From IMG/VR virus record IMGVR_UViG_3300032038_000027, positions 51,744 through 115,743 of that record: DNA of 64,000 bases; one strand, 5' to 3'. Positions 38,437-63,892 of this stretch are shown piece after piece; the first letter of the stretch is position 1; each line of letters starts with the position of its first letter. The translations under genes were made by a program, and so were the position numbers. The notes under the pieces were generated by a model. That model was not told where the DNA came from. It was given only the letters and a program-made list of their open reading frames with translations, and did no database searches. The DNA is from a virus. Its lineage: Duplodnaviria; Caudoviricetes.

Positions 38437-38808
38437 TTATCTCCTATATTCATTCACAATTTTGTGATTGGCTTCCCGGAGCTTTTCAATTTCTCTTAGA
38501 TTTTGCCGATAATTTGCAATAGAAATGCGCAAATTTGGCGGGAAATCTACTGTTTCTTTACGCGAAAAATTAGTTATTCGATATGATATTATTTCATCAC
38601 GATATATACAATACACATATCTATAGTCTTTCGGATTGATATAAAACTTAACTGCACTTTTAACGGTTTCGCCATTTATAAAATGTAAATTATAATATGA
38701 TTTGTACAGCCTCAAAATATGCCCATCATAATCGGAATGTGCGGAAATTAAATCGCCGAATTTCTTATCATCAAATATTTTGATGTCTGCATAAAACTCA
38801 TTATTCAC
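38437..38808 (-). CDS. Hypothetical protein
   Basis: 123-aa ORF. Confidence 0.5.
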   Translation of the reverse strand: MNNEFYADIKIFDDKKFGDLISAHSDYDGHILRLYKSYYNLHFINGETVKSAVKFYINPKDYRYVYCIYRDEIISYRITNFSRKETVDFPPNLRISIANYRQNLREIEKLREANHKIVNEYRR

Positions 38809-38829
38809 ATCAATGCCTCATATGGTAGA

Positions 38830-39126
38830 TCATGATTTGTTGCGCATAAAGTTAATCATCTTATTAACACCATCAATTACACCAACATAGTATTCTACGT
38901 CAAGTTGAGCTGATGATAATTGCTTACTTAATGCTTTATTATTTGATGATAATTCTTGATTCTTATTCTTTAAATCATTATTTTTGTCGTTTAATTCTGA
39001 TAATTCTGTCTTTAACTTATCAATATAAGAATTTAATTCCGCAATTCTCGCTTTGTATTCAGCGATGATTCCAGAGCCATCGTTATGTGTTTCGTTTGTT
39101 TCGTACATTTGTTCTAATCCTCCCAC
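38830..39126 (-). CDS. Coiled-coil protein
   Basis: Heptad-rich ORF. Confidence 0.5.
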   Translation of the reverse strand: MGGLEQMYETNETHNDGSGIIAEYKARIAELNSYIDKLKTELSELNDKNNDLKNKNQELSSNNKALSKQLSSAQLDVEYYVGVIDGVNKMINFMRNKS

Positions 39127-44128: not shown

Positions 44129-45070
44129 CTATTGGATTTTTACATTTATGTAATCAAGCACATTTTTCATTCCTAAACCACCGTCATTCCAATCTCTCAT
44201 ACAATACTCCCATAACTTCGGATGCGTTTCATGTAATCTTTGAAATCTATTAGGTTCTTTTTCAAGATGACATCCAAAGCCGCAGAAAACACAGCCCGTT
44301 CTATCACAGCCGGTCGTATATAGTTTGCCGTTTTCATCTTCCTTGATTTCGCTGTAAACAGAAGCATAGGGAATGTTGTAATTGCGGAGATATTGCAATA
44401 CGTCTTGCTCAGTCCAAAAGCTCATAGGGCGGGAAGTTGGACGTTTACTATTAAAAGCATTACAACCATACATTAACCAGTTAGACTTTCTCTGCACTGA
44501 TTCTTCTGTCATAGTTGCGATAATTGGAACTTTACCAGTTTCTTTTTCATACTGTTTGGCAGGATTCTTTTTCATCACATCACAGCATTTATCAGAAATA
44601 AGAAATGGAGCATCAACTAAATATTTATGACATTCCGAAATTTTACCACGACCATATTTATTGCCATTCCAACGAATATCTTTTAGCTTTTCAGATTTTG
44701 TAGTTCGATATTCTTGAATAAAAGCCGCTTGTTCTTTTCCTATAATGGGATAGCCATATGTTTCGATAACTTTTCTGAAATTCATCTTTGGTTTAAGTCG
44801 AATAACATTTTCTTGACTTAACGCAAATTCCCTTACTTCTGGATATTCCAATCCCGTATCGACAAATACCGCAGGAATATTTGGTCTTAATTGTCTGGCA
44901 ATATGTAATAATACTGTGCTGTCCTTACCTCCGCTAAACGAAACATAAGCATCATATTCTCTTAACCATTCTCTAATTCTGTTTGTTGTTAGACCAATCT
45001 TGACATTTAAAGGCATTGATTGAAAATACTTTAAATGCTCTGCGGTAAAACTTGAATTAGATTTTTTATT
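44129..45070 (-). CDS. PAPS-reductase-family (PP-loop) protein; native start lies on the flipped segment (predicted OFF)
   Basis: SFSGGKDS, VDTGLEY, CC, RTGCVFC. The frame is open to 45076 but closed by TAA at 45077-45079, and there is no SD-preceded start. Confidence 0.85.
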   Translation of the reverse strand, partial: NKKSNSSFTAEHLKYFQSMPLNVKIGLTTNRIREWLREYDAYVSFSGGKDSTVLLHIARQLRPNIPAVFVDTGLEYPEVREFALSQENVIRLKPKMNFRKVIETYGYPIIGKEQAAFIQEYRTTKSEKLKDIRWNGNKYGRGKISECHKYLVDAPFLISDKCCDVMKKNPAKQYEKETGKVPIIATMTEESVQRKSNWLMYGCNAFNSKRPTSRPMSFWTEQDVLQYLRNYNIPYASVYSEIKEDENGKLYTTGCDRTGCVFCGFGCHLEKEPNRFQRLHETHPKLWEYCMRDWNDGGLGMKNVLDYINVKIQ

Positions 45071-45203
45071 TAGATTTTAGTCAAATAAAATACCAATGTT
45101 TCGGTAAATTATTTAGCTGTTATCAATTAGATCATAAAGTGAAAGTTTAATAAGCAGCGAAAGTTAGGTGTTTAATAAATGGAAGAGCCAAATAAAAAAT
45201 CTA
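45058..45203. promoter_or_regulatory. Putative invertible start-codon switch A
   Basis: 14-bp perfect IR at 45058-45071/45190-45203; AGGTG-8nt-ATG GAA GAG CCA on the + strand becomes in frame with the gene after inversion. Confidence 0.8.
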
Positions 45204-45235
45204 TTTGATTGTTAAATTATCGTTCATAAATTTAT

Positions 45236-45445
45236 TTATTTCTTAATTTTTAGTTTTATCGTTTCTGGCACAACTTCGGCAAACCCAATTCCAATATCAT
45301 ATTCATCATCAGATTGACCTTCATAATCATCCACGATAATTTCTCCTATGAATTTTCTACCATCATAATTGTTAATTAAATCGCCTGAGATAGTCTTACC
45401 ATTGTCTTTTCGCTTTCCCGAAAAAATATATTTGGAATTATTCAT
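45236..45445 (-). CDS. YopX-like short protein
   Basis: FSGKRKDNGKTISGDL...EVVPET. Confidence 0.6.
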   Translation of the reverse strand: MNNSKYIFSGKRKDNGKTISGDLINNYDGRKFIGEIIVDDYEGQSDDEYDIGIGFAEVVPETIKLKIKK

Positions 45446-45447
45446 TT

Positions 45448-46125
45448 TTACCTCTTGGCATCTCCAATATCATTCACATAAAAATAAGATTGTGGCGATC
45501 TTGTTAATTTCATTTTAGGACAATCTTCACCGCTAAAATCATATCCACATACCATCATATTCTCACAATAATCAAACATATATGCGTCACATGATTTGCA
45601 AGGTCGCTTATCTTCGTCATAATTCCAATACTTAGAAAATTCTCCAAGCTCTTTTGGTTTATCATAAATAATAAGATTTGTAATGTGCCAAAGGTAAACG
45701 TCATTACGGTTGTTATATCTCATGATTTCACCAAGCGACATACAAATTCTAAGTAATGGTGTTGTAAAATCTACAAATAATCCAGAAGCATTTGGGTCTA
45801 ACCAATCTGTTCGATCACATATAAACTCGCCGATAACTTTCCCATTAAGAAAATTATCTTTGTTCCATTGGTTAGGAAACCGAGCTAACTCAATAGATGA
45901 ACCATATTTGATTTCGCCGTTTGGTAATCTGTATAATTCATCTGTATAAAGCGAAACATCTGAATTGTAATTTTTAGGTTTAGAGCAATATATATAGCAC
46001 TTGAATGGTGGCTTTATTTTTGGAATTGTTTTCTTAACTTCCTCGGTTTTCTCTCCATCAATAATTTTTGCACACAATTTTGGGTTTATATTGATTAGTA
46101 TAGCTTTACCAGAATTTTCGCTCAT
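45448..46125 (-). CDS. ASCH-domain protein
   Basis: ILININP...IIDGEKTEEV, CYIY, GKVIGEF, PQSYFYV. Confidence 0.75.
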   Translation of the reverse strand: MSENSGKAILININPKLCAKIIDGEKTEEVKKTIPKIKPPFKCYIYCSKPKNYNSDVSLYTDELYRLPNGEIKYGSSIELARFPNQWNKDNFLNGKVIGEFICDRTDWLDPNASGLFVDFTTPLLRICMSLGEIMRYNNRNDVYLWHITNLIIYDKPKELGEFSKYWNYDEDKRPCKSCDAYMFDYCENMMVCGYDFSGEDCPKMKLTRSPQSYFYVNDIGDAKR

Positions 46126-60767: not shown

Positions 60768-61166
60768 TTAATCACCTCTGCTTTCAAACATCACTTGATG
60801 ATGCTCCTTAATTTGTGGAAAATCGGACTTTAACATCGCTTTTAATTCGGCAACTAATCCCTTTAAATATGCCTTTGTTAAGCCGCTAAAAACATATTCA
60901 CATATATATTTCTTATCCGCAGAACCGCCAAACATGATACACAGATCAAGTTTATTACCCCAATCAATAACTCCATCTATGACTTTTTTGTGTTCATTAT
61001 ATATTTTAGCGGTTGCCTCATTAAGTGCTTCGGTCAATAATTCTGATTTATCGAGATCATTATAATATACTGTATCGTTTGCCTCATTAAGTGCTTCTGA
61101 TTTATCGGGAACATTATTTGAATCGACAATATCCGATTTAAGTATAAACATTCCTTTAACCATCAT
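60768..61166 (-). CDS. Hypothetical protein with internal duplication
   Basis: DKSE and EALNEA are each repeated. Confidence 0.5.
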   Translation of the reverse strand: MMVKGMFILKSDIVDSNNVPDKSEALNEANDTVYYNDLDKSELLTEALNEATAKIYNEHKKVIDGVIDWGNKLDLCIMFGGSADKKYICEYVFSGLTKAYLKGLVAELKAMLKSDFPQIKEHHQVMFESRGD

Positions 61167-62100
61167 TTCTTATCAGACCTTTCAAAATATGTTTGATAAC
61201 TTCAATACACCAACCATCGCCGCACATATTATAAATATGACTATCTGCAAAATCCATTTTATACCACTCAGGTATCGTTTGTAATTTACGATATTCATGC
61301 GGTGTGAGTTTGCGACATCTGCCGTGATCGTATACTTTCTTTTGCAAATTCCCGCCACGACAAGCTGTCAATGTTGGTGATTTATAATTAGGATTGTTGA
61401 CACGTTTTAAGATATCGTGTCCATTAATATGTAATATAGCGCAAACTTTTTTGCCATCATAATAATCATAGCTTTGCGTATAATAATATTTTTCATCTAC
61501 ATCTGAATCCATAATATCGCGCAAAACTAATGAACAATTATCCGGCAACTTATTTATAGGAATGTTTGTCCAATAATTTCTCGCCCGATCTTGTGCGGAA
61601 AATAAATTTGCGTTTATTAAAATGGGTTCAACTCCTAATATTTTGCTCATTTCATGAATATCATCTTTGCGATTACTATCCACGTTTTCTACGAGAAAAT
61701 AAACCATAGAATTATTATTTATTTGAATCCATTTAAGAATCTTAGCGCATGAGTAGAATAAACTTGATGAACCTTTTAATCCATTATTATATTCTGATCT
61801 ACCCATTGTAACTTTAGATAATGATCGACACGGACTGCCGAACATCACCAAATCAATTCTTGGTAAACTTTGTAACATATTATCAGTAATTTTCGTTACA
61901 TCTCCAAGCTGTATGGTGTTCGGAAAATTATCTTGTGTGCATTTTATCGCAACTTTATCAATTTCACTCGCATAATAATTATTGATCTTAAACCCTAATT
62001 CGGTTAATGCAATTTGACCGCAACTCATTCCATCACACAAACTAAGCACATTTAATCCTTCATCGCCAAATAAAGTGTTGTTTTTATCTTTTAATTCTAT
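61156..62100 (-). CDS. C5-cytosine DNA methyltransferase (switch B, predicted ON)
   Basis: VLSLCDG, FGSPC, LVENV, QDRAR, GDGW. Frame extends to ATA at 62100 after a GGTGA SD; GTG at 62049 is an alternative start. Confidence 0.9.
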   Translation of the reverse strand: MELKDKNNTLFGDEGLNVLSLCDGMSCGQIALTELGFKINNYYASEIDKVAIKCTQDNFPNTIQLGDVTKITDNMLQSLPRIDLVMFGSPCRSLSKVTMGRSEYNNGLKGSSSLFYSCAKILKWIQINNNSMVYFLVENVDSNRKDDIHEMSKILGVEPILINANLFSAQDRARNYWTNIPINKLPDNCSLVLRDIMDSDVDEKYYYTQSYDYYDGKKVCAILHINGHDILKRVNNPNYKSPTLTACRGGNLQKKVYDHGRCRKLTPHEYRKLQTIPEWYKMDFADSHIYNMCGDGWCIEVIKHILKGLIRNDG

Positions 62101-62220
62101 TTTAAGTCACCAAACTTTCGAATGTTAATTTCATATTATATGATGGTTAATTGTTGATAATTCAATATAACTCCGCAATATAAGGGCTTTCTTAACAAAA
62201 TTCGCACAATAAAAACAACA
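62076..62220. promoter_or_regulatory. Putative invertible start-codon switch B
   Basis: 12-bp perfect IR at 62076-62087/62209-62220. The current orientation supplies SD+ATA; the flipped one gives an in-frame TAA (62193-62195). Confidence 0.7.
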
Positions 62221-62225
62221 TTTGC

Positions 62226-63752
62226 TTAATGAAACATATTTTTCATTAAATGCGCAATTACCTCTACAGTCCAACCGTTGCCTAAACATTTATAAGCCTG
62301 TGAATCACTAATCACGCTAAAATCATACCATTCCGGCACAGTCTGTAATCTCTTACATTCACTCACCGTTAATTTTCTGATTATGTAAAAACCATCTGCT
62401 AATTTAATAGGATAGGTTTTACCTTTAATTTCAATCATACCGTTCTCTACGGTATGAACAACATAAGTTTTACCATCTGCTGACGATACAGCTTTAATTG
62501 GTTTATCGTTTTCAAACTTAACTGGAATAGCATAAAGTCCAGTATTAGAACCAATCCCACCACTATTGGATTGTTGCGTTACTGATTTACCATTTATACT
62601 ATAAATTCTGTTGCCTTGCCCACCGTTTCCTATTTCACCGATTTTATGAGATGTAAGTAATTTATCATGTTCAATATTTTCATTTACTGGTTCAATTACA
62701 CCTTCATAACCGCGACCATGAATAATATTTTCTTCAAGATTTCTTCCATTACCGATTTTATAATATGTAGCTCTTAAACAACTTGATTTATCTTTACATC
62801 TCGTAGTAACCGGCTCAGCAACCATCCTGCGTGCAGCGACAGATGTTAAAGCAGCAGACTTATTATCTGTTTTAGCTTCATATCTGCGGTCATACGTTCC
62901 ATCAGATTGTTTCTTTCTGCCGTATACTTGTTCTTGTACAGCTACAGGTTCGGCAACACCACTTGCTCCGTAGGTAGAAGTATATTTGCAAATATTCGCA
63001 ATACTTGTTTGCTGATATTGTGCTTTAATTGTTTGAGATTTGCCATCCTTAGTAGTATTCACAGGTTCAAATGTCATTTGACCTTGATTTTTCTTAAAAT
63101 ATTCTCGCGTAGTAGTTCTCCCGATACTGCTAATAATTGCGCGAGATTTATCACGATTAACTACGCCATCAAGAACATCTCGTAATAATATTCCCCTATC
63201 TTCCGGTTGCGGAATATCAGCTTTTCTATATGTGCCATCATCATTTCTGATTCCGCACCAATAATATCTATTGCGATTTTGTGCCGATACTAAAGCGGAA
63301 TTTATTAAAATAGGTTCAAATCCGAATGTATTTGAAATACTTTCGTAAATAGCTTTTGCCATTGACTTATTGTTTTCATAAATAAAGTATTTAGGTTTAG
63401 CTTCTTTCAATGCTCTAACATATTGACTGAATAATTCCCAACCTAAACCACTTGCTTCAGTTTCGCGGCGATCATTCTTTTGAGCGATTGACCAATATGT
63501 GCAAGGGCTGCCGCCAATTAAGAAATCAATATTTTCATATTGAGTGAAATCCGCGTCAAATACATCACCATTTTGCTCGATCTCAGGGAAATTATGCTGT
63601 GTAACAGCGATCGCATACTTGTCGATCTCATAAGCGGAATATTTTGCAACGTTAATGCCGCTGCTCATGAACGCCAACATTCCGCAAGCCATGCCGTCAA
63701 ATAGGCTCAGAACTGAAACTCCGTCATTTGCGGATAAATCAGTGTTTTTATT
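62226..63752 (-). CDS. C5-cytosine DNA methyltransferase with extended multi-segment variable region (switch C, predicted OFF)
   Basis: VLSLFDGM, GGSPC, IYENN, QNRNR, LGNGW. The frame is closed by TAA at 63753-63755 with no SD-supported start before motif I. Confidence 0.9.
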   Translation of the reverse strand, partial: NKNTDLSANDGVSVLSLFDGMACGMLAFMSSGINVAKYSAYEIDKYAIAVTQHNFPEIEQNGDVFDADFTQYENIDFLIGGSPCTYWSIAQKNDRRETEASGLGWELFSQYVRALKEAKPKYFIYENNKSMAKAIYESISNTFGFEPILINSALVSAQNRNRYYWCGIRNDDGTYRKADIPQPEDRGILLRDVLDGVVNRDKSRAIISSIGRTTTREYFKKNQGQMTFEPVNTTKDGKSQTIKAQYQQTSIANICKYTSTYGASGVAEPVAVQEQVYGRKKQSDGTYDRRYEAKTDNKSAALTSVAARRMVAEPVTTRCKDKSSCLRATYYKIGNGRNLEENIIHGRGYEGVIEPVNENIEHDKLLTSHKIGEIGNGGQGNRIYSINGKSVTQQSNSGGIGSNTGLYAIPVKFENDKPIKAVSSADGKTYVVHTVENGMIEIKGKTYPIKLADGFYIIRKLTVSECKRLQTVPEWYDFSVISDSQAYKCLGNGWTVEVIAHLMKNMFH

Positions 63753-63886
63753 TTAAATTCCGGTACTTTAAATGCCCAATAATTGAGAATTTATAATTCG
63801 CTGTTTATCTTAGATATTTTAACAACGACATAAAAACATATAGAAAGGTGGGTGTTTCACAATAGATTTAGCCAATAAAAACACTG
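63740..63886. promoter_or_regulatory. Putative invertible start-codon switch C
   Basis: 13-bp perfect IR at 63740-63752/63874-63886; GAAAGGTGGGTG-7nt-ATA GAT TTA GCC on the + strand becomes in frame after inversion. Confidence 0.78.
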
Positions 63887-63892
63887 TTTACT

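Follow-up and report, generated by a model that had tools for sequence, protein, structure and literature searches.

The stretch of DNA analyzed here (the window) makes up the right-hand 64 kb of an IMG/VR virus record that is 115.7 kb long and has an estimated completeness of 74%, and from ~10 kb onward nearly every one of its genes lies on the minus strand. Within this long minus-strand block sits a gene of the PAPS-reductase family, the subject of this study (coordinates are collected in Table 1). In the present arrangement the only start codon of this gene is ATG 45016, from which a protein of 295 aa would be made. Upstream of that ATG the minus-strand frame runs on through 20 further open codons before it is closed by a TAA, which lies exactly where the initial annotation had placed it, and no ATG, GTG or TTG is present in the gene frame between the two. 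When the window ORFs were scanned for ribosome-binding sites (RBSs), none was found upstream of ATG 45016; a match of at least 4 nt precedes 34 of the 49 window ATG-ORFs, with the remaining 15 lacking a clear RBS.

Table 1 Features of the PAPS-reductase-family locus, related cassettes and recombinase genes in the same genome, and loci grouped by cassette orientation
Feature	Position or locus	Strand	Comment
PAPS-reductase-family gene body	44129–45076	−	PF01507, phrog_424; frame open from 45076
TAA closing the gene frame in the OFF orientation	45077–45079	−	Read from the sequence
Gene-proximal inverted-repeat arm	45058–45071		Exact reverse complement of 45190–45203
Proximal site, proposed parts	45052–45069		Degenerate outer arm 45052–45057; 6-nt crossover spacer 45058–45063; inner arm TTTTAT 45064–45069; dyad layout
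Invertible core (118 nt), OFF orientation	45072–45189	+	RBS and start codon point away from the gene
Cassette-borne RBS and start	45166–45190	+	AGGTG 45166–45170, 8 nt, ATG 45179–45181, codons E-E-P
Distal inverted-repeat arm	45190–45203		Proposed inner arm 45192–45197, spacer 45198–45203, outer arm 45204–45209
Cassette B	62073–62223	−	Precedes C5-methyltransferase gene 61156–62049; ON
Cassette C	63737–63889	+	Precedes C5-methyltransferase gene 62226–63692; OFF
Tyrosine recombinase P0122	10051–11205	−	Integrase-like, phrog_1; where gene orientation changes from + to −
Tyrosine recombinase P0123	G000:C1:29947–30999, outside the window		Xer-like
OFF loci (n = 7)	Window, L003, L004, L007, L078, L079, L119		Read at the DNA level
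ON loci (n = 10)	L001, L002, L008, L013, L070, L072, L074, L077, L122, L123		Read at the DNA level
ON locus with distal arm deleted	L121		Read at the DNA level

The 5′ end of the gene is overlapped by a cassette of ~146 bp (45058–45203, cassette A) bounded by inverted repeats, the arms of which match over 14 of 14 nt, or over 17 nt with one mismatch. The gene-proximal arm is itself coding, specifying N-K-K-S in the minus-strand frame of the gene. On the plus strand the cassette carries an AGGTG motif, a 5-nt match to the Shine-Dalgarno consensus of the kind found upstream of most window genes, followed by ATG GAA GAG CCA running into the second repeat copy; both were described in the initial annotation and were verified at the positions claimed. 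Inversion of the core in silico likewise gave the predicted product, a single ORF of 317 aa with the N-terminus MEEPNKKSNSS that runs into the existing frame. The ON ORF thus owes its RBS, its ATG and its first four codons to the cassette, and the proximal repeat lies inside the ON coding sequence while the distal repeat is intergenic, as in a partial intergenic (gene-altering) inverton. A simple scan of the core detected neither a promoter nor a terminator, and the core has no match in Rfam. Two promoter-like matches in 44900–45500 (fewer than in shuffled sequences) and two sub-threshold Rfam matches in 44800–45500 all lie outside the cassette.

Taken by itself, the inverted repeat is weak evidence, being near chance expectation and not significant: perfect inverted 14-mers spaced 60–300 nt apart are expected ~0.27 times per shuffled genome, and when up to two mismatches are allowed in the 14-mer the window is no richer in them than its shuffles. 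The element is lifted above chance because three homologous cassettes, with cores of 118–121 nt, occur at the 5′ ends of genes, and because the same codons bear a cassette in many related phages, in both orientations. The two sister cassettes in this genome, B and C, have cores of 121 nt each and stand at the 5′ ends of C5-methyltransferase genes. Read in the sense of the RBS, cassettes A, B and C align with one another, best over the RBS, the start codon and the arms; relative to their genes, B is directed toward and A and C away. At the position homologous to the ATG of cassette A, both B and C have ATA, and the alignment suggests that this may be a deliberately weak start codon. The first in-frame ATG of the C5-methyltransferase gene behind cassette C falls within SAM-binding motif I. 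A GTG with an AAGGA site of its own is also found at 62049 in the gene behind cassette B, and this gene may not be wholly dependent on its cassette. Elsewhere in the window, at 38765–38952, minus-strand coding sequence contains a perfect 13-nt inverted repeat (38765/38940) with 162 nt between its arms; it was considered as a further switch and set aside, as it lies inside a coding sequence and is probably due to chance.

The PAPS-reductase-family gene has thousands of relatives, and an alignment was built that took in 120 of them. Residues 12–21 of the ON form are conserved across this alignment, and the restored stretch includes the conserved positions T13 (in 76 of 86 aligned homologs that reach it), L17 (88 of 89) and Q21 (106 of 107). 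In the column of the window Met encoded by ATG 45016, Leu occurs in 49 homologs, Trp in 48 and Met in only 14, and ATG 45016 is therefore not a conserved start. Homologs that begin at the MPLNVK of the short form with no conserved extension, a case raised in the initial annotation as counting against a switch, were not what the alignment revealed; a conserved extension is present upstream of this Met. The protein of one related locus in the ON orientation (P0007, from L001) shares its first 19 residues with the predicted ON protein, and its AlphaFold2 model (pLDDT 91) has residues 1–9 disordered and residues 14–22 as a confident helix. The model thus places the codons of the recombination site in a disordered N-terminal tail, and predicts that starting at the internal Met deletes the conserved helix with the near-invariant L17 and Q21. 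OFF alleles are miscalled by annotation as truncated proteins of 295 aa. A nucleotide search of deposited phages returned distant matches only, at 65–76% identity and confined to the gene.

The protein matches PF01507 with 76.6 bits (cutoff 22.5), its PP-loop SFSGGKDS is invariant in the homolog alignment, and its best Foldseek matches are CysH and APS reductases, with E values down to 6e-9. From sequence and fold, the enzyme can be assigned to the PAPS_reduct/PP-loop ATP pyrophosphatase superfamily. A true PAPS/APS reductase (CysH) was considered and rejected: there is no C-terminal ECG(L/I)H motif, in place of which the enzyme carries a four-Cys cluster, C-x4-C-x2-C-x3-C, and the scores against the NCBIfam cysH and PAPS-reductase models are far below their cutoffs. 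PADLOC gave weak matches to two phosphorothioation enzymes, BrxP (E = 5.6e-12) and SspD (E = 4e-9; for background on these enzymes see PMC12914056), which cover only residues 42–108, the PP-loop region. The immediate neighbors encode an AAA_28 ATPase and an N6/N4 methyltransferase, and are not the recognized partners of DndC, SspD or BrxP (dndD, sspBC and brxC). Here and in relatives, the surroundings of the gene include DNA methyltransferases, a 5′-nucleotidase-type gene, an ATPase and an RNA ligase. By analogy, given the switch it shares with two C5-methyltransferases, these neighboring genes and the weak BrxP and SspD matches, it is plausible that the enzyme modifies DNA or nucleotides.

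Cassette orientation was then compared across related loci, with allele states counted only where the DNA of the locus itself was read (Table 1). The inverted-repeat layout of the window recurs at at least 15 related loci, and all seven OFF alleles have both an intact gene body and a hidden ATG on the other strand that comes into frame upon inversion; a clear purine-rich RBS precedes most of the hidden ATGs and is weakest in L078 and L079. Inverted alleles, on which the initial annotation had made its reading depend, do exist. In a blastn comparison of the window with the ON locus L001, the flanks match on the same strand (89% and 76%) and a 153-bp cassette matches on the opposite strand. Between L074 (ON) and L078 (OFF), which encode identical enzymes, the flanks align on the same strand with 96–99.6% identity and the 160-bp cassette aligns on the opposite strand with 97.5% identity. 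Mapped onto a maximum-likelihood tree of the enzymes, cassette state needs at least six changes, of which at least four are forced by well-supported branches, and shuffled labels average 5.8; the nearest relative of the window enzyme on this tree is ON. The scatter of states over the tree, together with a pair of identical enzymes that differ in state, therefore favors frequent, reversible flipping over an old fixed rearrangement. The cassette occupies the same codons of the same gene in phages with enzymes only ~47% identical, and its arms, which are repeats of 9–17 nt, differ between lineages and match within each cassette. Exact and degenerate gapped patterns for the gene-side junction that the window itself would have in the ON state had no match in IMG/VR and JGI metagenome contigs.

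Several loci depart from this common picture. The start of the L002 contig coincides with the inner edge of the distal arm (L002:1–110, by comparison with L008 and L122), a break that fits an assembly fork at the inverted repeat in a sample of mixed orientations. L121 (positions 1380–1510), apparently a natural variant locked in the ON state, is an ON allele without the distal arm and ~23 adjoining nt, the OFF form of its lineage being L119. In L124 (1–300) and L125 (200–510), which fall into the same 90% protein cluster as the window enzyme, the arms are separated by ~225 nt and are identical except at one position; most of a 78-aa Cys-rich ORF lies within the intervening segment, and the enzyme starts at a GTG that gene callers missed. 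Short proteins in the 90%-identity clusters were also considered as OFF alleles and rejected, as P0129 turned out to come from an ON locus with a GTG start missed by the caller and the short form P0076 reflects a missed TTG start.

With their inner ends aligned, all 26 sites fit an imperfect dyad in which a 6-nt spacer separates an A-rich outer hexamer (approximately ATAAAA) from TTTTAT. Agreement of the outer hexamers with ATAAAA averages 4.4 of 6 positions, compared with 2.0 for random genomic 6-mers, in a set of sites related by descent; the 18-bp dyad proposed from these sequences is a weakly tested model, with arms of 6 bp and sites that are kin. Inverted binding elements that flank a short asymmetric overlap are the classic layout of a tyrosine-recombinase core site. 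The spacers are specific to each locus (TAGATT in A, TGTTGT in B and CAGTGT in C), and being unlike, they would keep the cassettes from recombining with one another.

Two tyrosine recombinases, P0122 and P0123, and zero serine recombinases are encoded in the genome; with the serine recombinase family PF00239 found neither here nor in five cassette-bearing relatives, there is no sign in these six genomes of an invertase of the Hin/Gin/Cin type. When P0122, P0123 and the 348-aa protein P0126 were searched for in cassette-bearing and cassette-free records, no family was found to track the cassette. Genes resembling P0123 are present in the cassette-bearing G003 and G046 and absent from the cassette-bearing G005 (complete according to CheckV), and they are also present in G006, where no such cassette was found; scans for repeats over the whole genomes of G003, G006 and G046 gave noisy results. 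Among 49 phage records with a related PAPS-reductase gene that were searched, 10 contain a relative of P0123 (29–59% identity), and these ten are all 94–173 kb in length, some with direct terminal repeats. P0123 itself may act as an invertase, in the resolution of dimers or in integration. As a rough ranking of candidates for the flipping enzyme, P0123 stands first at somewhat short of an even chance, an enzyme of the host comes next as a serious contender, P0122 is unlikely, and any other enzyme is unlikelier still. At the left end of the genome and outside the window, G000:C1:1338–1708 holds a dense array of AT-rich palindromic repeats of 14–16 nt (TATTATATATAATA) at a spacing of ~35–36 nt, which could be an origin, a packaging site or a partition site.

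Together, the sequence comparisons make it very probable that the element is a programmed DNA inversion switch (an inverton) that acts on translation and is set to OFF in the window. In the ON orientation, the start carried by the cassette would join the gene in frame, to give the 317-aa protein with its conserved N-terminal helix. In the OFF orientation, the TAA would close the frame and leave only the internal Met, which has no RBS, so that little or no functional enzyme would be expected. The operon would be transcribed in both states, with the flip deciding whether ribosomes initiate; translational control is the simplest reading because no promoter or terminator was found in the cassette and because the gene lies inside a long minus-strand block. 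A tyrosine recombinase would most likely flip the cassette by acting on the 18-bp dyad sites, presumably with crossover in the 6-nt spacer, and with a different spacer in each of the three cassettes, each would flip independently. The purpose may be to hedge, with the DNA of phage or prophage modified in one state and unmodified in the other. A more ambitious reading, which we regard as possible at rather less than even odds, is that a single recombinase in a large temperate phage operates a set of independently addressable translational invertons, distinguished by their own spacers and each supplying the RBS and start codon of a different DNA-modification gene, two for C5-methyltransferases and one for a PAPS-reductase-like enzyme that would make an undescribed modification of DNA or nucleotides, and that the resulting combinatorial states hedge against restriction.

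The cassette might instead choose between two isoforms, with the 295-aa enzyme made from ATG 45016 being active or altered in function rather than absent. An ATG does exist at this position and is used by gene callers, and with 15 of 49 window ORFs likewise lacking a clear RBS, some translation from it is possible. Nevertheless, this ATG has no RBS, a protein started there loses the confident helix 14–22 with L17 and Q21, and most homologs have Leu or Trp in the Met column and hence no conserved internal start; we consider a choice of isoforms improbable.

Even less probable is that the two orientations are old inversions, fixed and inherited by lineage, with no switching at present and with OFF alleles that are decaying pseudogenes. 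This would agree with the fact that the two states are known from different assemblies only, never from one sample, but it does not account for a distribution of states on the tree that looks random, for phages with identical enzymes that differ in state, for the intact in-frame ATG and gene body of every OFF allele (7 of 7), for arms that stay matched within a cassette despite divergence between lineages, or for a break of the L002 contig that coincides with the inner edge of its distal arm. The least credible of the alternatives is a MITE-like element with terminal inverted repeats that landed upstream of the gene by chance, or an artifact of assembly. A length of ~146 bp, terminal inverted repeats and three copies in the genome are all features that such an element could show; however, the ends differ between copies A, B and C and match within each copy, the flanks carry no target-site duplication, the proximal arm encodes protein, phages with enzymes only ~47% identical have the element at the same codons of this gene, and both orientations recur in many independent assemblies.

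DNA inversion as a means of phase variation is a textbook strategy of bacteria, and in phages it is known mainly from the swapping of tail fibers in Mu and P1. The G segment of phage Mu and the C segment of P1 undergo programmed inversion by phage-encoded serine invertases (Gin and Cin), and these inversions of 3–4 kb exchange the C-termini of tail fibers and thereby change host range; both examples are cited in PMC9881135 and PMC12823448. The phage described here differs in that it has no serine recombinase, a tiny invertible segment and an enzyme gene as the target. In the expression-site inversions reported for Mycoplasma agalactiae (vpma with Xer1, PMC2268961) and Ureaplasma (mba, PMC3047005), a tyrosine recombinase moves the sole promoter and a 5′ end to or from the body of a gene. 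The recombination site is reportedly located in the 5′ part of the gene, as it is here, but a single expression site serves many silent surface-protein genes spread over kilobases, whereas here each gene has a private cassette.

The RecV switches of Clostridioides difficile (cwpV, flgB, cmrRST and pdcB; PMC2784873, PMC5386303, PMC9286219) are similar in that several segments bounded by inverted repeats occur per genome, each lying between a transcription start and a gene and exerting control after transcription has begun, and in that hosts are of the low-GC Firmicutes type and the tyrosine recombinase, RecV, is encoded elsewhere. They differ in being chromosomal and in consisting of untranslated leaders that work through terminators or unknown RNA effects and carry no start codon; the phage cassette brings an RBS, an ATG and the first codons, and one of its arms is coding. 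The partial intergenic inversions cataloged in bacteria (Milman et al. 2023, PMC9881135; PhaVa, PMC10028968) share with the present case one repeat inside a coding sequence and the other outside, such that coding potential is altered, but the gene-altering inversions in these catalogs are mostly long, shufflon-type exchanges of domains (HsdS, tail fibers, PilV) in bacterial genomes. Milman et al. (2023) required repeats of at least 22 bp (PMC9881135), compared with 9–17 nt in the cassettes described here, and no mention of a PAPS reductase was found in their paper. More generally, the bacterial literature describes invertible promoters, hsdS shufflons and gene-altering inversions (PMC9881135, PMC10028968, PMC7672463). 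For viruses, a 2026 methods paper on TPMM reports 16 putative viral invertons supported by reads in viral contigs from gut metagenomes (PMC13501310); neither the start-codon cassette architecture nor the gene targets seen here were found in the passages searched, and the word "methyltransferase" is absent from the text. A full-text search of the literature turned up no account of such a start-codon cassette on the modification genes of phages.

The phage studied here thus appears to turn DNA inversion on its own genes of the DNA-modification type, and to do so at the level of translation, by flipping an RBS together with a start codon. For the very common and uncharacterized phage PAPS-reductase family phrog_424, the cassettes offer a comparison of ON and OFF forms, and for metagenome assembly they mean that an arm can be the point at which a contig breaks, as seen with L002. 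Compact cassettes with locus-specific spacers could also provide orthogonal genetic switches. For the biology of the phage, one stock may comprise several epigenetic types that differ in their sensitivity to host defenses, and if the combinatorial reading is true, the switches would allow the phage to hedge its bets where some hosts restrict unmodified DNA and others restrict DNA that is modified.
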